Both the position numbers and the translations under genes were made by a program. Below, piece by piece: positions 1,737 to 56,539 of a stretch of DNA of 64,000 bases (position 1 is its first letter; each line of letters starts with the position of its first letter). Below the pieces are notes generated by a model. That model did no database searches. It saw nothing but the letters and a program-made list of their open reading frames with translations, and was not told the DNA's origin. The stretch is from NCBI GenBank assembly GCA_964106915.2, contig OZ066916.1. One strand, 5' to 3'. This DNA comes from Podarcis gaigeae (Eukaryota).

Positions 1737-1917
1737 TCAAAAAGAGAATCAGCAATATACAGCTCCTACTATCTAAATGTCACTTTGCTAAGTGGAATCT
1801 ATTATACATAATAATCAGAATTTGTTGGTGTTTTGTGATTTTCTAGCCACAACTTACATGCTTTTTCTGTTGAGTTAAAAATCAGAAGTCTTTCAAAAAT
1901 AATAATAAAAACATAGA

Positions 1918-2081
1918 TTCAGGTAGGTAGCTGTGTTGGTCTGACACAGTCGAAATATATTAAAAAAAATAAAATTGTCCAGTAGCACCATAGAGACCAA
2001 CTAAGTTTGTTCTTGGTATAAGCTTTCGTGTACATGCCAAGAACAAACTTAGTTGGTCTCTAAGGTGCTACTGGACAATTT
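1918..2081. mobile_element. Penelope-like element fragment with fold-back (inverted) duplication
   Basis: 45-bp inverted arms 1972-2016 and 2037-2081 (1 mismatch), 20-nt spacer containing half a hammerhead (minus strand CATGTACAC-GAAA-GCTT-ATAC); homologous to 27566-27691. Confidence 0.7.
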
Positions 2082-2109
2082 ATTTATTTATAATAAAAAC
2101 ATATTAAAG

Positions 2110-8566: not shown

Positions 8567-8796
8567 CAGTGGTACCTCGGGTTACATACGCTTCAGGTTA
8601 CAGAAGCTTCAGGTTACAGACTCCGCTGTACCTTGGGTTAAGAACTTTGCTTCAGGATGGGAACAGAAATCGTGCTCTGGCGGCACGGCAGCAGCAGGAG
8701 GCCCCATTAGCTAAAGTGGTGTTTCAGGTTAAGAACAGTTTCAGGTTAAGTACGGACCTACGGAACGAATTAAGTACATAACCTGAGGTACCACTG
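8567..8796. mobile_element. Tc1/mariner (Tigger/pogo-type) MITE, family A copy 1
   Basis: TIRs CAGTGGTACCTCGGGTTA / TAACCTGAGGTACCACTG, TA TSD both sides, 230 bp. Confidence 0.9.
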
Positions 8797-11611: not shown

Positions 11612-12250
11612 TATTGCACAACCCCCAATATGTCTAGACCTGTCAGCATAACCGAGCATCCTCTCAAACTATATTTTAGAACAGCGGCTATTTTTCCATG
11701 TGTTTACTGGTGATGCATCGCAATGAATAATAGAGAAGCCAGCAGGCAGAGGGGCACCTCTGGCGCACTTTCCTCACCAGCAGCGCAAAACATAAATCAA
11801 ATATTGATAGAGTTTTAGTTTTCAGTTTCACTTTCCACAACTGCAAAGTTCAATAGTTTCTCATTGTGCCTTTCAGCAAGATGTCAATACTGTATTACTA
11901 GAGGGGGGGAGGGAATTCCCAATTAACCTCTCTGAAAGCCTCTTCTACCCTAGAGCAGTCTCCATCCCCATAGCAAACTGTAGATGGTGCTGAGCCCCAA
12001 CTTCCACCAGCTGCAGCTAAAGGTTGACTGCGGTGGGACTTGTAGTCCAAAACAGCTGCCTGAGAGCATTCATTTCCAAGCTAACTGCAACGAATGAACA
12101 TTTCCTTTTTTGTTTAACACACACTGTGTTTTTATTCCCGTTTTCCTTGTGTAATATTTGGACTGTAACATTTGCTGTTATTCAGTGGAAACTTCACCGA
12201 CTTTGTTAATATGGAATTAGGCCCATGGATTTTAGGCTAGTTAGCCTAAT

Positions 12251-12677
12251 TGTTGTTGTTGTTGTTTAGTCGTTTAGTCGTGTCCGACTCTTTGTGGACC
12301 AGAGCACGCCGGGCACTCCTGTCTTCCACTGCCTCACACAGTTTGGTCAAACTCATGCTGGTAGCTTCGAGAACACTGTCCAACCATCTCATCCTCCGGC
12401 GTCCCCTTCTCCTTGTGCCCTCAATCTTTCCCAACATCAGGGTCTTTTCCAGGAAGTCTTCTCTTCTCATGAGGTGGCCAAAGGATTGGAGCCTCAGCTT
12501 CACGATCTGTCCTTCCAGTGAGCACTCAGGGCTGATTTCCTTAAGAATGGAGAGGTCTGATCTTCTTGCAGTCCATGGGACTCTCAAGAGTCCCTTCCAA
12601 CACCATAATTCACAAGCATCAATTCTTTGGCGATCAGCCTTTATGGTCCAGCTCTCACTTCCATACATCACTACTGG
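12251..12677 (-). mobile_element. BovB (RTE-clade) LINE, 5'-truncated 3' end
   Basis: ORF 12246..12671 YGSESWTIKADRQRIDACELWCWKGLLRVPWTARRS...EKTLMLGKIEGTRRRGRRRMRWLD is the characteristic BovB ORF C-terminus; (CAA)n tail; possible CTAAT TSD. Confidence 0.92.
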
Positions 12678-15599: not shown

Positions 15600-16800
15600 T
15601 TCCTGCCCTTGCCCTCGGGGTCGTGTCCTTTGGCCTACATAGCTACGAATAATCCAACCAATATTTCGGCTGTTATTGACCGGCTAGCACCACCTTGCTT
15701 TCGGCGGCTCCAAACTGCCTTGCCTTTAGCCCCAATCCTGTAAGGCCACGGGCCCCAGGGAGCGCCCCAAAGCAACCGCCCGAAGCAACTCATCCCGCGC
15801 CACTTTGCGAACAAAAGCGCAACAGGCAAGGCGCATTGGGGCGCAGGGGGCTTTCTTTTTTGGGTGCGTGTGATCTGGCTTCTACGTTCCCGATTCCGAG
15901 TGTAGATCGGGGAGGGTTGGCCGAGCAGGTGGCGAGAGCGCGGCATGATGCGGGGCGGCTGGTGGGGCTGGGCTCTTCTTGGGAAAACGCCCCTCCTCCC
16001 CGCGCCCTTCCTTCAGCTTCCTCCTCCCGGCCAACAAAACCGAAGACTAGCGAGCGAGAGGAAGGGTCGTGCTGGGTAATAACAATGCGCGCGCGGGGGG
16101 CGGGGGCTGCATCGGGAGCCACTTGCCGCCGCGGCGACGGCAGCAGCAGCAGCAGCGACGGCTGCCGCCCAGGGAGCCTTGATTGACGTCGACCTGCTCG
16201 CGAAGCGGCGCATCGAGCGCCAGGCAGAGCCAAACAGCCGCCGAAGCCACCGGCTGGCTCGCGCCAGAGGAGCACAAAGAGGCGGCAGCTCCATCTTTCC
16301 CAGCGGCAGCGAATCGGCCCCTCCGAAGAGGATCGCCGCCCGCCTCCGCGCCCTGTCTGCGGCCAGACGGCGCCGGCATCTGGGCAGGAGGGCGAGGAGG
16401 AGCAGGAGACCCACATGGGCATGTCCTTGGCTCGTCTGACCGCGCTTCTCGCCGCTGCTTCCCATCGCAGGGAGCTGCCGTAGCTGATGGATGCCGGAAG
16501 GTGCCGCATTGCCTTGTGCGGCTTTGCAGCCTGCTTTGCTGGTGCGGATTACTTGGCTGTTCCCTTTTCGCCCCGGATGCCTTTCTCCTGGCGGATGGCT
16601 GTTCTGTTGCGAGGCGACTGAATCCTCTCTTGTCCTGCGACTCTGTCTGTCCTCGCGGGGAGCGGGGCGGGTGGTGGGGAGGAAAGGACCTGGAGGATAT
16701 TTTTACCCCCTGCCTGAGAAAACCTGGGAGCGAACGAGAGGGACATGCGACAGTCTTGCTGGTAGTGGATGAGATCACTGTGTACGTAGGAGGGGAACTG
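15600..16800 (+). promoter_or_regulatory. CpG island: CLVS2 promoter and probable non-coding first exon
   Basis: Sharp rise in GC and CpG content ~1-2 kb upstream of the ATG exon; GC box GGGGGCGGGGG at ~16096-16106, SOX-like AACAATG at 16081-16087, overlapping TGATTGAC/TGACGTC at 16180-16190, short (GCA)n run at ~16140-16156. Exact TSS and exon-1 donor cannot be fixed from sequence. Confidence 0.85.
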
Positions 16801-17255
16801 GGGTGGGTGGGGGGAGGGCGAATCCAACCCAAGCTCCATGGGCTAAAAGGGGTGGGGTGGGGGTGCAAATAAGAACCTCGGGTTTTTATTTTTATTTTTT
16901 TAAAGAAGCACCCTTCAGCAGACCAGTTGCATGCCCTTAGCACCCTGTCACGCACTGACTTCTAAATCCACGAGGATCTGAGTTTCTTAATTTGCGGGAG
17001 GGAGGAAGTCCCTGGTGGAAACATTGCATTGCCGCCTGATTTATTGATACAGCTCTTCTTGCTATCTCCATTGCACCAGTACCAAGGGTGAGATCACTGG
17101 TTTGCACAGAGGAGTGAGGTGGGAATATCTGAAGACAGTGGTGGTGGGGGGAGGGGGAGGAGAGAGATATCCAGTACTGATCGCCCCCAGCTTGGGGAAA
17201 GTCACTGTACAGCGGCTGTTTGGCCTTCCTCTCTGCCATCATGTTGCTTTAACAG

Positions 17256-17813: not shown

Positions 17814-18202
17814 ATGACTCATTTGCAGGCAGGCCTATCCCCAAAGACGCTGGAGAAAGCCCGGCTGGAACTGAACGAAAACCCGGACACCCTGCACCAG
17901 GACATCCAGGAGGTGCGGGACATGGTCATCACCCGGCCAGACATTGGCTTTCTCCGCACGGACGACGCCTTCATTCTCCGCTTCCTTCGGGCCAGGAAGT
18001 TCCAGCATTTTGAGGCGTTTCGCTTGTTGGCCCAGTACTTTGAGTACCGCCAGCAGAACCTCGATATGTTCAAGAGCTTCAAAGCCACAGACCCAGGCAT
18101 CAAGCAGGCACTCAAGGATGGCTTCCCAGGAGGACTGGCTAACCTTGATCACTACGGCAGGAAGATCCTGGTTCTGTTTGCTGCCAACTGGGACCAAAGC
18201 AG
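17814..18202 (+). CDS. CLVS2: Clavesin-2, first coding exon (aa 1-130; CRAL-TRIO N-terminal region)
   Basis: ATG at 17814 reads [63 protein letters not shown]...ANWDQSR, matching clavesin-2 as I recall it; donor AG|GTAAAC at 18202/18203; 389 coding nt, phase 2. Confidence 0.98.
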
Positions 18203-21200
18203 GTAAACATAAGAGTTTGGGTTGTGGGTAGCTGGGGTCAGATGAGACACTCGCCTGAATTTACCATCATGCTGCAATCATCATAGCAAACTGAAATCCT
18301 GTTTGGCCCCAGTGATGAAATGATGTTAATATTCCTTTCCCAGCCAGCAGAATGCCAGGTGTAAGGCATCTTGTTTTGTCCTGAGTTCTCCATGTGGCAA
18401 ATTGCAATTTTGATGATCTGATCCAGATGTCCTGCCATAGTGGGGTGGTTTGACAGGTATCCTTCAAATTCTTTCCAAATGCAGAGCTCAGAGACAGGGA
18501 GAACCAACATTCTTAGGTTCACATTTGCATTGGGCCAGGTTGGGCCATAAAATGTAGGAGAGGGGAACAGATGAATGGAAACTTGTTCTTTTTGTTGGGA
18601 TACTGTGGATCTTGGATCCTTCACTTGGAGGGCTGTCGGCTAAGGCATTGTAGAGATCATGCTCAGTAGGGGAAGAGGGATGGTCTTGATATACCACCTT
18701 TAATATCTTTCTGTGACAAGAGCTGTGATGCCTGTAAAGGAGCAAAAGTGTTGGTCGTTTGTCCTGTCACTGACATATTTATCCAATGCAGTTTTGCCTG
18801 CTGTGAAATAAGCAGTCAGCTGGGACACAAACAGAGGATGACGTTCAGGAGTGCTCATTTGCATGTCAACCATAGTCTCCCAGGTCCTGGTCCTACACTA
18901 TTCAACCCATAATTACTCAGAATTTGCCCCAGTTTGGAGGTAATTTTTATAGTGTTTCCCCCGGTCATCTCCCATGTTGTAGCAGCAAAGCCTGAACTTC
19001 TGCATCAACATGGGTTGCCCAGAAGATAGAGGTACTTCCTAAGACAACATGCCACTTCTCTTGGTGTCTGCATGGTGGAAATTACCCATTGTGATATATA
19101 ATTTCAGATGATACCAATGAAATGTGGGAGCCAATCATAGTGGGACAGAAAATTTGAACTCTGACTTGTTAATTCTACCACTTTGGTTCAGTGGAAGTTG
19201 ATGGAACTCAGCTGAGATAAGTGCTGCACACATGCTGATTAAGCATTCTGTCACAATGCTACTGAGCCCACAAGGAGCACCCTATGCACTTGATCCAACC
19301 CTCTTGCAGGTACCTTGGAAAAGCAAGGACTTTATCTCGGAGGCAAACTCCATGACTCCTGCCAGTAAATCTATTTATCCTAAAATTTATCAGATGCCTT
19401 TCCAGGCAATAAACATCAGTTGCTTAAAATGTAGTGAAATGATAATGCAAATGCAAAAGCAGAGTAGTCCTAAAAATATCTTGTAGCAGGAAATTGAATA
19501 TTCATCCCTAAAGAAATGCCTTTATTCTCATAAAGTCCTGCAAGGCTCCATCAAGTCTCCAGAGCATGCAGACTTCCTGGCCCAAGCTGGTCCCAGTTTC
19601 CATTGTCTGGTGTGTGTGAACACAGGCAAGGGACCAGCCTGGTTTAAACCACTGGAATCTCTGATGTGCTGGGGATGGATATGCTTTAGGGCAATGATGG
19701 GGAATCTGTGACCCTCTAAATGTTGCTGTACTAAACTCCCATCATCCCTGACAAGTGGCCACGCTGTTTTGGGTTGATAGACACTGGAGTCAAACAACAT
19801 CTGTAGGTTCACAGGTTTGCCACTCCTCCTCTACAGTTAAAAGGGGATTGGCTATCAGGTCTAGCAAAGGCCTTTGCTCAAGGTTTTGGAGGGCAGGAAT
19901 TACTAGGCATAAACAACCTTGAGTTACATGTTCTGTGCTGCGATTGTTCTCATTTGCTCATTCTCTCATGTATATATTGAATGGATGGAGAATGGAACAG
20001 AGTTCGTGTTTGGCTCCATCTTCAACAGGAACAGTAAAACAACAAAATAGGCCTTATTATGGCATAGGTTTTCATTGACAACAGCTGTATTAATCAGATG
20101 CAGGAACTGAACTGAGACGGTAGGAGGCATGAGGTGAAGTGTAGTAGAAAATAAATCATACTAACCTAGTTCTGAATTTTCATTCAAACCCTTCCATTTA
20201 TCAAACTAATACATGTAATACAAATGATTGTACATAGAGCAGAGTGAACAATACATATCTTGTCAAAATGACAGCAGAAACAGAAACACAAGGAAGCCAT
20301 ATTTGCTTATAAGCACTTACACTTTGGGGGGGGGGGGAGGCAGTTACACCCAGGAGTTGATGTTAAACACTGCCACCATCACAAGGTGATGGTGGGGGGG
20401 GGTTTAATTAAAAAGGTAAAGATGACATCATCAGGATGCTGGATTCTGTAGTGTCAGTTTTGAGCTTTTCCTGCAATTGCACATAACCATGAAATAGGCA
20501 CAGCCCTGGTTAATACCTGCTGAAGCATAATTTGTAAATTAAGCCTTTCCAAAAGGAAATTCTACTCTGTGAATAGTTTATCATTTATGCTGGTACAACC
20601 CCATGCTGTATCAGTGTGAAAATAACAATAGCACAGTCCTATATATCTTTGCTCAGAAGGAAGCCCATTTTGTGCATGTTGGGGATTATTCTCAGGTAAG
20701 TGTGCATGAGACTGCAGCCTCAGTATGTGCATTTACTTTTAAATATGTTTTGAGAGTTGGCAATGGTAAGAGTTAATTTTGCTTATAGCACACAAGTGCT
20801 ACAACTACTTTACAGATGCGTAATTGGGTCTCTTTTCTTAAGGCATACAACATTTTAGAAATGGGATAAACAGTGGTTTTCTAACAGCATGCATAAATAG
20901 GGGGCATTAAGCACAGTTAAATTAATCATGGATCTCAGATTATCTTTAGAAATTAGTTATACACTACTGAGTACATAAATGTGACCCATGAGACACTATA
21001 AGAAAACTAAGTTTCAGTGAAAGCAGCTGGATATAAAACAGAATTTAATTTACTGGCATGCTAATGCAAATTTTCTCTATGTTACTGAAAGGCAATAGTT
21101 CCTAACTTGCTTTTTCAGCTCTTGACATCATTTGCTATTTATCTGAGAAAACTTGAAGATGGAGAAGGAAGAGGTTACTCTTACTTAAATTGCGTCTAAT

Positions 21201-22827: not shown

Positions 22828-23372
22828 GGAACATAGCTCAGTGGTAGCGCATACACTTTGCATGCAAATAATTCCAGATTCAATTCCTGGCATCTCCAAG
22901 TAGGTTGGGAAAGATTACTCCCCCAAATCCTTGAGAGCCACTGCCAGTCAGTATGGACGAGAAAGGGATGGGAAACCTCTGGATATTGTTTGCACCATCC
23001 CTGATAGTTGGCCAGCTAGCTGTGGCTGGTGGGAGTGAAGTCCAATTGCATCCGGGGGGCCCTGGTTTCCAGACCCTTGAACCTAGTACAGTGGTACCTC
23101 GGGTTACATATGCTTCAGGTTACATACGCTTCAGGTTACAGAGTCTGCTAACCCAGGAATATTGCTTCAGGTTAAGAACTTTGCTTCAGGATTGGAACAG
23201 AAATCGTGCAGCAGCGGCGCGGCGGCAGCAGGAGGCCTCATTAGCTACAGTGGTGCTTCAGGTTAAGAACAGTTTCAGGTTAAGAACGGAATGAATTAAG
23301 TACTTAACCTGAGGTACCACTGTACTAAGCTAGGCCAATGGTCTGACTAGGTGTAAACACCTTCCTATGTGG
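22828..23372 (+). mobile_element. tRNA-derived SINE (Squam3-like) split by nested hAT and Tigger MITEs
   Basis: Head ATAGCTCAGTGGTAGCGCATACACTTTGCATGC...TTCAATTCCTGGCATCTCC to ~22952; tail GGCCAATGGTCTGACT...CTTCCTATGT resumes after 23324. Confidence 0.7.
23089..23322. mobile_element. Tigger-type MITE, family A copy 2
   Basis: Same TIRs, TA TSD, 234 bp. Confidence 0.9.
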
Positions 23373-24201: not shown

Positions 24202-24376
24202 GTACACACTGGTGGATATTTTGCGTGCCATACTTCTTTCCTTAGAAGCCATGATTGAGGATCCTGAACTTCAAGTAAATGGATTTGTTTTGATTATAGA
24301 CTGGAGCAACTTCACTTTCAAACAGGCTTCTAAACTGACACCAAGTATGCTTCGATTAGCCATAGAAGGCCTTCAG
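24202..24376 (+). CDS. CLVS2: Clavesin-2, second coding exon
   Basis: Acceptor ttgacag|G; reads (R)[58 protein letters not shown]; donor CAG|GTAAAA; 175 nt, restores phase 0. Confidence 0.98.
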
Positions 24377-27167: not shown

Positions 27168-27409
27168 CAGTGGTACCTTGGGTTACATACGCTTCAGGTT
27201 ACATACACTTCAGGTTACAGACTCCACTAACCCAGAAATAGTACCTTGGGTTAAGAACTTTGCTTCAGGATGAGAACAGAAATCGTGCTCTGGCGGCGCG
27301 GCAGCAGCAGGAGGCCCCATTAGCTAAAGTGGTGCTTCAGGTTAAGAACAGTTTCAGGTTAAGTACGGACCTCCGGAACGAATTAAATACTTAATCTGAG
27401 GTACCACTG
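27168..27409. mobile_element. Tigger-type MITE, family A copy 3
   Basis: Same TIRs, TA TSD, 242 bp. Confidence 0.9.
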
Positions 27410-27565
27410 TAAGTTTATATGACATTGTGGGAAAATCAGAAAGGAAATAGTGTTCAGGAAACAACCAGAAGAACAAAAGGAGCAGCATGGAAACAATGGG
27501 ATGTGCACATCACATGGCAAGAAAAGGAAAGGAACCAGTTTATAAATGTTCTTTTTTTTCTGTTA

Positions 27566-27691
27566 CAGATAGGTAGCCGTGTTGGTCTGCCATAGTCAAA
27601 ACAAAAAAAATTCCTTCCAGTAGCACCTTAAAGACCAACTATGTTAGTTCTTGGTATGAGCTTTCGTGTGCATGCACACTTCTTCAGATAC
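27566..27691 (-). mobile_element. Penelope-like element terminal fragment
   Basis: aggtagccgtgttggtctg...ccagtagcaccttaaagaccaac...ttggtatgagctttcgtgtgcatgcacacttcttcagatac; same family as 1918-2081; carries the hammerhead motif typical of PLE terminal repeats. Confidence 0.7.
27654..27691 (-). ncRNA. Minimal type I hammerhead ribozyme motif (Penelope-like element associated)
   Basis: Minus strand reads GTAT-CTGAAGA-A-GTGTGCATGCACAC-GAAA-GCTC-ATAC: stem I GUAU/AUAC, CUGAnGA box, stem II hairpin, GAAA box, palindromic AGCU mini stem III, cleavage predicted after the final UC. Confidence 0.75.
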
Positions 27692-29275
27692 AGAGCAGGT
27701 TAGAAAAGTACAGATGGGAGATACTGAAAAAGGAGCATAACCAATAAGTACACATGGCGTATTTGCTGTCTTGATAAACAGCTACGCTATTTAATCAGTG
27801 GAATTGTATTTGCTTTGGCTTACAAGACTTTGACGAGATCACATGGCAGCTGAGGAAGAAAAAAACCTAGCACTCTAGTAAATTAATTGCTCTTACAGAA
27901 AAAGAAAAAGACACAGAGATGGGTGGACGGGCGACTCCAACAGACTAGCACAGGCTGTTTAACACTAAGTGCACCTGTATACCAAATCAGCCTGCTTAAA
28001 GATAGCCAACATTTTGTACAGACTCCCATTATCTCTGATTGTTGTCCATATTAGCTGGGGCTGATGGGAGTTGGAGTCCATCTGGAGGCCACCACATTGC
28101 CAGTCCCTGATCAGCAGTGACCAGCTGCAGTTCTAACCCCACTAACCTGGAAGTGAGGTCTGTCGAGGACTTCTGATTGTGCATGATGAGGATTGTACTG
28201 TTATTCCAAAAAATGATTGGAATGCATACTGAGTGACTCTTTGGTGACCTTCTTTCCTGCAAGGTACAGAAGCACCTTGGTTGTGTGTGAGAGATAAGGG
28301 ATAAATACATGGGTCCTCCAAGGTGCCCTATTGTCTTGTCTCACTTTCTGGACCCACATGCATGATTTCCCTCTGGATGTCATTAGGCAATATTTGGTCC
28401 ACCTCTACCTAATTACGTTGTATGGATGACATTTGAATTCCAGAAACATTTCATGAGTTGAAAAATAATTTCATACAAGTGAAAGTGTAGAGTTTGGTGC
28501 TCTTCTTTGAAGGACAGCTTGTTGTTTCATGGTTCTTCATTTTCATTGCTTAGCTCAGAAAAAATCTTGCTCTTTGTGTAGTATGGTAAGCAGTGTCATT
28601 AATCTGATCAATTTTGGAAGTCAATCTGCATAGAAAGCCAGATTCTGAGTGTTGTGATAAACAAATGTGGGGGTTTGAACTCTGTTCTCTCAAAAACAAC
28701 AGGCATGTTGATCAGAGGTGAAGATTGAGGCCACATTTTCTTCTAGGCTGTCTTATACCAGTGCTGGGCAAGGCGAGACGTCAACATGAATAGATGCAAG
28801 AGGTCGAGCGATGGGCTTACGCTATGCTCCGTGCTATGGAGCTTGTGGAGTTGAGTCAGTATGGGAGAACTCATTCATTGTGTCTCCTTCTGCATCATAG
28901 GGATTATAATAAAGTGCATTTTCATGTAAAAACCTACCACAAGACTCTGAAGCAGTGCTTTGGCAAAAAAAGAAAGAAAAGTGTATCAAATTGTATTGAA
29001 GCTTTGTAGGTAACCTGGATTGAAAGTGTGGCGGCTCTACTGTTGAAACAAAAATCACACTGGAGCTTGTTTGTTTGTAGCAAATAGTTTTCAAATAGTG
29101 TAAAAGTCTTAAGCACTTACTGCTGCCTGAGCAGGCCACAATGAAGCCAGACAGATCTGATGTTGAGCAGTTCCATGTTGTTGCAGTGGTCGTTACACAG
29201 GATTGGGCTCCCAAGTCCCCTCTTGCCCAGCTCCCCTGCCTTCGGGGGTTGGTGAAGGAGGTCTTCTTGTCTGTA

Positions 29276-45257: not shown

Positions 45258-45368
45258 GACAGTTTTCCAGCTCGCTTTGGAGGAATTCATTTTGTAAATC
45301 AACCATGGTACATCCATGCCCTCTATACAGTTATACGGCCATTTTTGAAAGAAAAGACAAGGAAAAGG
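45258..45368 (+). CDS. CLVS2: Clavesin-2, third coding exon
   Basis: Acceptor atcctag|GAC; reads [37 protein letters not shown]; donor AGG|GTATTT; 111 nt; not in the ORF track, translated by hand. Confidence 0.97.
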
Positions 45369-52388: not shown

Positions 52389-54439
52389 GTATAGACACAG
52401 GGAGCCAAGCACCTTTCTTTGGCATATAAGACAACTGGTTTTTAATCTTTTAATACTAAGTTTGGGGTTTTGAGACCCATTTGGGTCCTGAGCATTAGGT
52501 GTGTCTCAAAGCATCTGCCTCTTATCTGGTCCCCATTTGAGAACTTGCCTCCTTGACTAGACCATTTGTAGTAATGCTCAGCATTCCACCCATAATACTC
52601 AGCAGCAACAGACTGATGCATTTCTAAACCTTACAAAACTGAAGTCTGAATACATATCTATATATTTTTACCACTCTCTACATATAAAGTGTCATTGGTA
52701 GATAAGTATATGTAATCAAGGATTTATAAAAACAAATCATACCTATTTGGTGTGCTTAGAGTTTATTATAGATTGTATATTAAGACAATGTCATCGTTAA
52801 CATAGTAAAAGATTAAGTACCGCATCCTACTTTGAGCAAGATTTAATTGTTATAAGTACGGTGTAGTACAATACCATGCTAAGGCCATCTTTTGTTTTGT
52901 GATGTAATTGTGTAGATGAAACATGTGCCATATTAGACAGAAAATACATTTTTACCTCAAAAGACCAAACAGTCCCTAAAGTGGACTGAACATGGTCAGC
53001 TGTAGTTTAGGGGTATATATTCATCTTTGATGTGTGCTGATATGCTTGTGTATTTTCGCCGTACATCAAGACAAGAATGTACCCTACAACTATACAGATC
53101 TCTGTCATCAGAATTTAATATGCCACTTGAACAGGAATGACAAGATCTCTTTCTCGCAAAAAAACCAAAACGTTACTACTGAACTCTTAAGGGCTCTGAA
53201 GAAACATATTGGAATTAATTATTGGATATTTAAGATGCCTAAGATCAGGCTTAATGCTGCGACAGATTGTGTTCCCATTGAAAATCTTCAGTTTCAAGAC
53301 AGTAGAATGACTTGTTTGTTTTAAATCACCTCCATGCCATTCAGAGACAACCTTCAGATAATTCTTGGGGAAAGAGGAATTAATATACATTCTGCCTGTA
53401 CTGTCTTTGTATAACTCAGATACTCTGTTGAGACACCATGTGCATGTCTGCTATCATTGATTTCCACTGCAAGCTAGTGTTAAAATGATGTGAGGCTGTA
53501 GTGTATTCTAGACCACTTAATGCACTGCTGGATGCTCAGTTAAGAGATTCTTATTTGGCTTAATTTTTCTTTTCCTTATTTAAATTATGACAATGGTGTT
53601 CTTTGCAGGCTAGAGCATTATGTTTGGTTACATTATAGAAGCATTCATCATTCTAATAACATGGTAAACAAGCAACCTATCTATTAAGCAGGGAAACCTT
53701 CATGGTGGGAACACTATGATGAATGCATTAACCAAAATGGATCTGTTTTTGACAGGAATGGCTTATAGTTGACAAGACCTATGCTTATCGCATCCAGAGA
53801 TCTTAAGTTGAAAGCTGTGATCTTAAAACAATGACTGCCTATTGTATGATATCAATTGCCCTTGGGCCACCTCACTGAATAAACACTTAAGAGGCAGCCA
53901 TGGCCAGTCTAGGCTATCTAGCATATGTGCCAGGACCAGCAACTGTATCTGGTTTGACCCTTGGTGGTAAGTAAGCAGCCTAATTTATCACAAGACTGCA
54001 GTCTCAGAGTTTTCCTAGAAATACAGCTGCAGCACCTTTAGCAACATCAGCAGTAAGAACATTGCATGTCTCTCCATGGGGATCTACATCAGTTCCCATG
54101 GAGTAATTTGATTAGATATGTGTTATTTCTCAATTGAAGCTCGGGTCTCTAACTTTAGAAGTTTCCTGTATAGCACTAATACCTTTTTGCATGGCTCCAT
54201 AGGAATGAGCAAGCTGTTTAATGATTGGAATCCTTATGCTTCCAAACTGATAAGAGTTAGACAATTTGGAACAGAAAACATGCTAGGCAAAATGAAATGG
54301 TAATTTGTGGATAAGCTTAACTGCAGATGCAGACATTTGTAGCAATGCCAGACAAGAGGACTCTGTCTTGGTGTAGCACAAAAAAAAGAGTCTGGTGTTG
54401 AAAACAAAAATGAAACACACCTGTAGTTAGCACACATTT

Positions 54440-54790
54440 TCTTGGGAGACAATGGACGAGTGTTCCTTTACTGGTGAGATCAAACTGTTGGCAGATTGCA
54501 ACACTTTCTGTGGCTGTAGAGACTGATGTGGGAGAGACATGATCTGTTGCAGCTGGGGCAGATGGTGACATCCGGTTGTTCTGTTGCAGATGCACCATGG
54601 TGTTTCTTCTCTTTGTGATCCTCCCAGAGGTCATTTCTCCTATGCTATGGATACATGACTTGACTGCCTGTCTCCAGGCACTGCGGTCATCTGCAAAGGA
54701 TTCCCATAGAGCGGGGTTTATGTTGCCAGACTTCATGTCATGTTCACAGACATCTTTATAGCACAGCGTTGGTCTGCCAATTGGCCTATG
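54440..54790 (-). mobile_element. RTE-clade LINE 3' fragment (different family from BovB) in the putative 3'UTR
   Basis: Minus strand reads RPIGRPTLCYKDVCEHDMKSGNINPALWESFADDRSAWRQAV, the RTE 'GRP..RYKD...WE..A.DR..WR' signature. Confidence 0.75.
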
Positions 54791-56539
54791 GAATCCAGTT
54801 AAGAGATCAGCTCACCTATTATGCAATTTCATCAAACCAGATTGGCAGCAACATATAATGCATGGCTCTGAAATTATATGTGTGCAATGAATAATGGCAT
54901 TTGTGGTACATCTTGAACTGTGTTGTGTACATAGATCTGGCTAGGTGGTGAATGAATGATCCTTCTGGTGGTTAGAGTCGGGAGATGTTGTGTCATATAG
55001 TATGTTAGTCGCTCCGAAATCTTAAGATTTGAGATCTGCCAAATACATACAAGTTGATAGAGATAGGAAGCTCCAGGAACCCTGGAATTATGCTACAGTC
55101 AGTTTCTCATTGTCCAATAATATCCTGGCTGAGGCAGTAGGCAAAGAGCTAAGCAAAGGCTTTGTTGAGTGGGAGAGCTGCTCACTTCATTATGAGCTAC
55201 AGGAGCTATCCTTTCAGGACCATATGCAGCATCTGTTTCCCTATAAATCCTTGTTCTCTGGCAAAAAGCTTTTATTCAGAAAGCCTAGGGTTTTTCGGGG
55301 GGGGGGGGAATGAATGAATTCAAGCTTCAAATACTGTGTTTTGTATCACTAGGGCCTGTCCCCATGTTTCCTTCCATATATATGCTGTCATGAAATGGAT
55401 TATAGGTGGGTCTATTTCATAGGCTGAATCACTCTCATTTAGAGCAATAAAAAGATCTTTTTTCTTGCAGTGTCAGAACTAATTTGCCTAGAGTTAACAT
55501 GTTCCATATTTAAGCTTCAGTCAAGTCAGCGGTGCTTAAGCCACAGTTGACAGTTTCTGAATGTACACAGACAGAACAGACAGAACTGCTGCTGGTGTGA
55601 CTGAGCATAGCTTTATTAATTCCACTTCACAAAAGCTGAATTTCATTAAGGCTGTTATCCTGGCCTCACTTACCTGGGAATAAGCTGAATTCAATAGGAC
55701 TTACCTCTGAGTAGTCATGGTTAGAATTGCAGTGTAACTCACTTTTAACAGCACAATCCCATCCAGGTATACTCATTGGATATTAGGTATAGAAAGTGAG
55801 TATAGGTTGACATCTCTAAAGGTTCTTATTTTTGCAATCTTCATGAAACTTCATAAAGGAAAAATCAACCTTACCTCATGAAACCTCCATATACTAAGTG
55901 GCTTGTTTTAGTTTTATTTTTGCATTTGAATTCTTGTCTCTATGTGTTTCGGAAATGCATCCCAATGTCTAATTCAGCTATTGCTGTAATGAACACTCAG
56001 ATAGTCCTCTCAGGAGGTAACACCATGATTTTGCATAATTCAACCTCCATATTTTGCTGAGAATAAACTGATATGTTCCAAAGGAAGTACTCTCGCTGTA
56101 CAAAATCGGGTCTTCAGAGAGCACCAGCAGATTCTAGGCACACTGTATGTCCCATAGCCACAAATTAATTCAGCAGCAGATTTTCAGAGGTGGGTGATGG
56201 AAATTAATAGCTTATTCCTAAGCAGGCTTCCTCCTTTTATGAATTCAAGGCTTATGATGCCAGTAGAAAAAGTCCTTTAAATGAGAAAGCCAGCCCCTTT
56301 GATAGCGGTGATCTAAAGGAATACAGGACATGATAAAATCTTACTCAGTTGAGCCATCCTTGGGTACAACCTCAAAAGCAGTTTAGGAACCTCCTGTATC
56401 TATTTTACATGTTTGCCTGAATTATAAACTAAAACATACTGAGAGCTAGATCCTTGGCAAAGTGATTGTTTTGAATATCACATCATGGATATCTCCAGCC
56501 ATGGCCTGGAGGTTCAGCACCTAAATCTCACATAAGAAC

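Follow-up and report, generated by a model that had tools for sequence, protein, structure and literature searches.

A minimal type I hammerhead ribozyme in a young intronic insertion at CLVS2 of the lizard Podarcis gaigeae, likely the 3′ end of a Penelope-like element

Introduction

Does a hammerhead ribozyme that has all its catalytic letters in place and sits in the intron of a lizard gene cut RNA there, or is it carried along by a mobile element? This question is raised by a 38-nt motif on the minus strand of the DNA analysed here, a stretch of 64,000 nt from Podarcis gaigeae (assembly GCA_964106915.2, contig OZ066916.1), referred to below as the window. The initial annotation had assigned it to the minimal type I hammerheads that Penelope-like elements carry, and took it to lie antisense in an intron of CLVS2, where it might still be active on an antisense transcript.

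The minimal hammerhead ribozymes (min-HHRs) of metazoan Penelope-like elements follow a consensus of CUGANGAH, a G10.1–C11.1 pair, GAAAN, a palindromic 15.2–16.2 step and a helix I of 4–5 bp. They mostly occur as single dispersed copies, and similar motifs are present in turtle and snakes (Cervera and De la Pena 2014, PMC4209133). A single intronic copy is in itself of little importance; its repeat family, on the other hand, gives two cheap handles on what the hammerhead does in Penelope-like elements, namely a pile-up of 5′ ends and a palindromic stem II. For the copy at CLVS2 we consider it quite probable that it is a young, truncated stub of the 3′ end of a Penelope-like element in which the min-HHR is a passenger that does not cut.

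Results and Discussion

Anatomy of the motif

Read directly from position 27691 down to 27654 of the minus strand, the motif is GUAU-CUGAAGA-A-(stem II)-GAAA-GCUC-AUAC, exactly the letters first reported for it. Both catalytic boxes, the 4-bp stem I, the perfect stem II and the palindromic AGCU that replaces stem III are there as described. The 5′ arm of stem I (27688–27691, from the sequence and from folding) is followed by the CUGAAGA box (C3 to A9, 27681–27687) together with an unpaired extra A at 27680, as is typical of min-HHR motifs (27680–27687 in all). Stem II (27666–27679) consists of five Watson–Crick pairs and a self-complementary loop of 4 nt and is a perfect palindrome of 14 nt. 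The next eight positions (27658–27665) hold G12 to A15.1 (27665–27662, with G12 at 27665 inside a CpG), the AGCU (A15.1, G15.2, C16.2 and U16.1 at 27662–27659) and C17 at 27658. The 3′ arm of stem I (27654–27657) completes the motif. The predicted cut falls between 27658 and 27657, in agreement with the minus-strand 5′ end at 27657 that had been proposed.

The sequence features of the class are present: the CUGANGA and GAAA boxes, the NUH triplet, ends that are joined in helix I, the unpaired base between positions 9 and 10.1, the G10.1–C11.1 pair, the palindromic 15.2–16.2 step and the lack of a helix III. With the extra base after A9 and a helix I of 4 bp, the motif fits the published consensus (PMC4209133, Fig. 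S3), and the class assigned in the initial annotation stands. The motif of the turtle Chrysemys picta bellii has CUGAAGAA, the AGCU and the stem lengths in common with the window. It differs by one two-sided compensatory change each in stems I and II, as judged by eye from this single comparison, and by U17 in place of C17, a letter carried by 5–14% of the family to which the window copy belongs. In Fig. S3 the turtle row is not marked as ORF-linked, and no lizard row is found among the 56 motifs of that figure (PMC4209133).

Could such a motif have arisen by chance? The two boxes taken without the stems do occur at chance rate in the window (7 matches versus 6.2 expected), and a 71-nt stretch folds no better than its shuffles (z 0.20). 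Nevertheless, a structure-aware scan that combines boxes, stems and NUH triplet finds one site in 64 kb on both strands. None of 300 block-wise dinucleotide shuffles contained a site under the strict descriptor, which was defined after the motif had been seen; with a loose descriptor at least one site appeared in 13 of the 300. Together with the fit to the published consensus and the compensatory changes relative to the turtle motif, this refutes a chance origin. The motif is a real minimal type I hammerhead of an already described kind. No hammerhead covariance model of Rfam caught it: across the window there were no matches at gathering score, and the three weak matches on 27400–27900 (E 2–5) are unrelated, none of them a hammerhead. 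A search for the ribozyme pattern gave no match in metagenome contigs and none in viral contigs.

The repeat family

To place the motif in its genomic context, DNA contigs from four sequencing runs (X1, X5, X6 and X12; one sample per organism, four of the 24 listed) were placed on positions 27420–28000. Between 9,207 and 18,399 contigs per run fell on this region, nearly all of them within 27562–27692 on the minus strand. The summed depth exceeds one million over most of this segment and is 9–61 in the flanks, a value that shows high copy but is no copy number. The segment is thus a stub of a high-copy repeat, 131 nt long with the ribozyme at its 5′ end; its start may lie up to 4 nt further left, within a T-run. 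The repeat family extends past both ends of the stub. The end of the motif is 92 nt away from the end shared by the family at 27562, which fits a pLTR hammerhead near the 3′ end of an element.

A second copy of the family is found at 1916–2089 (minus strand). It is cut off inside stem II, lacks the CUGAAGA box and has an inverted, 5′-truncated copy attached, which forms an inverted repeat of 62 nt. A perfect 14-bp AT-rich direct repeat flanks this copy at 1902–1915 and 2090–2103. Truncated copies with a neighbouring inverted copy are a layout described for Penelope-like elements (PMC8557442). The second copy and the family ends show the 5′ truncation, the inverted truncated copy at the 5′ end and the variable 3′ tail of these elements; the site without insertion in X6 and X12 (see below) and the 14-bp AT-rich duplication at the second copy show a dispersed, mobile repeat with AT-rich insertion. 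From the type of ribozyme and this insertion layout the family is likely a Penelope-like element and the stub likely its 3′ end (pLTR). We infer the membership in this way since no frame of the element was seen, neither of a reverse transcriptase nor of a GIY-YIG nuclease, and the stub itself is too short to hold one. Thus, the suggestion that the motif marks a ribozyme-bearing family proved right as far as a large repeat family is concerned, with its membership in the Penelope-like elements following from these likenesses.

A useful comparison is Poseidon of Anolis carolinensis (PAc; Frangieh et al. 2024, PMC11167929), a Penelope-like element of a lizard which likewise has a pLTR hammerhead, AT-rich insertion sites and a variable 3′ tail. 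The likeness drawn here is one of features. The PAc ORF is reported to start at stem II, whereas in the window the frame that opens with the AUG in loop II stops after 9 codons.

In the second copy, the inverted piece begins a few bases at most from where the ribozyme is predicted to cut (2033–2040), with 4-of-5 microhomology to loop II; this start could stem from a template switch or from a cleaved template.

No description of this repeat family or of the locus was found in papers, in a search that had most subscription papers and Repbase/Dfam outside its reach; related reptile repeat families are catalogued in Repbase/Dfam. A pattern of the stub body matched eight metagenome loci and one genome locus, which were rejected as chance matches: the best covers 34 nt at 88%, and none reaches the ribozyme.

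The host gene and the history of the locus

CLVS2 lies on the plus strand of the window. Its first coding exon (17814–18203) is 98–99% identical to named clavesin-2 records and about 85% identical to clavesin-1. The exons upstream (24202–24376) and downstream (45258–45368) of the host intron, both on the plus strand, have CRAL-TRIO matches, and CRAL-TRIO is the only family returned by a protein family search. The motif is located in the intron 24377–45257 (20.9 kb), 3.3 kb from the donor site and on the opposite strand, so that the antisense position given in the initial annotation is correct. Upstream of the gene, the region 15600–16900 is GC-rich with many overlapping long frames and is likely a CpG-island promoter, where antisense transcription could arise.

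The four organisms differ at this site. X6 and X12 lack the stub here: one contig joins the left flank (27420–27499) to the right flank (27689–28000), and it holds the segment 27500–27557 in the opposite orientation as well as 575 letters that are missing from the window. Over 312 positions, this right flank is separated from that of the window by 5 letters and 1 gap. One contig of X5 comprises the right flank (1 letter and 1 gap different), 20 letters and then 27500–27585 reversed, including the junction between host DNA and stub. Although the stub is visible in it for its first 24 bases only, this is the same insertion with the ribozyme strand on the sense strand of CLVS2. X1, the closest match to the window among the four organisms, has a contig over 27666–28000 with zero differences, which supports the right junction of the window; 27420–27539, with the left junction 27499|27500, is without cover in this run.

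The insertion is young, as the stub is absent from the orthologous site in two of the four organisms. The host segment 27500–27557 has the opposite orientation in three of the four and was probably inverted along with the stub. The right breakpoint of such an inversion would be a 4-nt microhomology that the 5′ end of the stub shares with the right flank (27689–27692); the right flank starts at 27689 in X5, X6 and X12. With one sample per organism, the simplest order suggested by the contigs is an empty site, a sense insertion, and then an inversion with deletion. In this order the reverse transcriptase/endonuclease of the element would have inserted the stub into the T-run, initially with its ribozyme on the sense strand of CLVS2. 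It would have become antisense by a later inversion through the microhomology at 27689–27692, in which about 575 nt were lost. Thus, the antisense orientation in the window is likely secondary. A target-site duplication was looked for at 27562–27692 and none was found, which the later inversion and deletion would explain. The initial annotation had the fragment stop at the ribozyme boundary. In fact the stub ends at 27692 and this ending is common in the family, but at this locus the end is ambiguous because the right breakpoint of the proposed inversion coincides with it. The segment that is inverted opens with a perfect 12-bp palindrome (27500–27511).

This history also bears on whether the motif might be a domesticated intronic ribozyme that regulates CLVS2 in the manner of the hammerheads of RECK or DTNB. 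It shares with the conserved amniote hammerheads of RECK, CTCL and DTNB that it is of type I and lies in a vertebrate intron, here 3.3 kb from the donor site. Those hammerheads are conserved across classes, as summarized in a review (PMC6155905), whereas the copy in the window is young, lineage-restricted, minimal and antisense. Neither an orthologous site that is kept nor a sense orientation is found: relatives as close as X6 and X12 lack the copy, and the two carriers X5 and the window have it in different orientations. None of the Rfam hammerhead models recognizes it either. We therefore give this explanation hardly any credence and regard it as largely refuted. The three alleles at the CLVS2 site (empty, sense and antisense) nevertheless offer a natural comparison for the effect of a lone intronic copy on its host gene.

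5′ ends within the family

Where do the copies of the family end? In each of the four runs, the six loose-end places listed as best supported include positions 27691 and 27692. Per run, 64–75 contigs leave the family sequence at 27691 for unrelated DNA (agreement 0.36–0.37), and 40–79 contigs run on beyond 27692 with a common sequence. A pile-up at the cut site does not appear among these six places, 675 further rows of loose ends standing outside the listing. If this pattern holds, 5′ ends gather at the edge of stem I and not at the cut site, and the RNA that serves as template would usually be uncut; an uncut template is likewise reported for PAc (PMC11167929). The ends at stem I could reflect a start site, a splice acceptor, or a fold-back of the cDNA on stem I.

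The first two of these possibilities would suit another explanation, in which the family is a short non-autonomous element that derives from a pLTR in the manner of a retrozyme or SINE. Its RNA would start at the 5′ edge of stem I or be spliced to it, and the stub would be complete. Besides the pile-up itself, there is the sequence of the copies that extend beyond 27692: on the ribozyme strand, their stub is immediately preceded by a pyrimidine run with CAG at its end, like a splice acceptor or an initiator. In Drosophila Penelope an intron is described as ending at helix I (PMC4209133), and derivatives of this sort have been reported in reptiles: non-LTR retrozymes, which are short, non-coding, pLTR-related and equipped with a type I hammerhead, were found in four of the five reptiles sampled, and monomers of them occur, also in introns (Li et al. 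2026, bioRxiv 10.64898/2026.07.22.740005). On the contrary, the contigs with a common sequence beyond 27692 imply that a longer parent exists, and the second copy at 1916–2089 is cut inside stem II and has an inverted piece. Moreover, stem I is an inverted repeat, where a fold-back of the cDNA could equally pile up ends. Non-LTR retrozymes are also built of tandem units each with a hammerhead, whereas the copy in the CLVS2 intron is single. On balance a non-autonomous unit seems unlikely to us, and we keep to the truncated 3′ end of a Penelope-like element.

Two further observations concern these ends. In copies ending at 27691 the first loose letter has the consensus C in all four runs, corresponding to an extra G on the ribozyme strand; this G could be a cap-derived base, a fifth pair of stem I, or a mere plurality since A is excluded. 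X6 also has joints between the 5′ edge of stem I (27691–27692) and its 3′ edge (27651–27654), with 2–4 letters in between and with no strand given; they are either fold-backs or tandem ribozyme units.

Conservation of the motif

The initial annotation had singled out this copy as intact. As a distinguishing mark this does not hold, as the window copy carries the family majority letter at all 38 positions of the motif. For 35 of them no variant of at least 5% is listed. The variants at the other three, given as share of depth, are C17>U with 5.2–14.0%, which is still NUH, G12>A with 10.4–19.9% and C11.1>U with 8.1–16.1%. The last two positions form one CpG. G12 is the general base of the hammerhead (PMC6155905), and thus inserted copies would lose a catalytic base by ordinary CpG decay.

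Preferential conservation of the catalytic boxes was assessed by the number of variable places, which is 3 of 38 in the motif and 10 of 91 elsewhere in the stub (p 0.75). When the CpG is left aside, the count is 1 of 36 versus 10 of 89 (Fisher p 0.18). Both counts exclude 27642, where the window copy has a private letter, and contig ends bias the 5′ part. The second count leans weakly towards some constraint on the motif in the parent element.

Predicted activity

A lone copy cannot form helix III because the pair A15.1–U16.1 would close a loop of 2 nt. By analogy to known min-HHRs, two copies in the parent element would pair through their AGCU and so build helix III, probably aided by the protein of the element. 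A single copy would not cleave the RNA of either strand at a useful rate. The published experiments point in the same direction: a minimal monomer showed no detectable cleavage, and dimers and trimers cleaved little (PMC4209133). The ribozyme of PAc is reported to cleave only in the presence of the element protein and to be unneeded for insertion in vitro, and RNA-seq showed no ends at the position of its cut (PMC11167929).

Folding with ViennaRNA gives a similar picture. With 0–10 flanking bases stems I and II form (P 0.64–0.99), so that the motif may fold locally during transcription; with at least 30 flanking bases on each side the pair probability of stem I is at most 0.09. The predicted energies at 37 °C are −11.1 kcal/mol for the dimer joined through AGCU, −13.6 kcal/mol for two monomers and −29.0 kcal/mol for a dimer formed by the stem II palindrome. 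The native loop II ranks 6 of 256 four-letter loops for the gain on dimerization in the folding model. A stem II dimer is still without helix III, and the palindrome is accordingly predicted to favour an inactive dimer, in models which leave out tertiary contacts and protein. Compared by eye, strict self-complementarity of loop II occurs in 1 of the 56 published loops (2 with G–U), versus 16 of 256 random four-letter loops. The palindromic stem II may be an accident of this lineage. In a standard dimer assay that has no loop control it could nevertheless hide activity.

These data can be set against the proposal that the copy is active where it stands, with an antisense transcript cut at 27658|27657 by help of a family copy in trans and of the element protein. 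Such activity would find every core base and both stems intact and abundant partner copies, and protein-assisted cleavage exists in the anole element. Against it stand the inactivity of published monomers, even dimers being slow, the misfolding of stem I that the model predicts in the presence of the flanks, and the AGCU dimer, which is predicted to be less stable than two monomers and far less stable than the stem II duplex. Activity of this young, lone monomer on antisense RNA, raised as a possibility in the initial annotation, is thus not supported, and we regard it as very improbable. The passenger stub described at the outset is the better explanation.

A bolder reading would give the palindrome a function. 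In this case the 14-nt stem II would be a second dimerization surface, much stronger than the AGCU. Acting like the dimer-initiation site of a retrovirus, it would hold two element RNAs together in a ribozyme-off dimer, and the element protein would have to refold the pair before it forms a cutting double hammerhead. The history of the CLVS2 locus, a sense insertion inverted later, would then reflect selection against a copy in sense. We consider this combination a long shot and retain the non-cutting passenger as our reading of the locus.

Other repeats in the window

Further repeats were seen in the window. Another short repeat, which has inverted ends, occurs near the stub at about 27170–27411 and again at 8570–8780 and 23090–23290; we take it to resemble a miniature element of the Tc1/mariner type. 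In addition, two frames on the minus strand (12246–12677 and 54317–54811) resemble the C-terminal end of LINE proteins, RTE/BovB-like and others.
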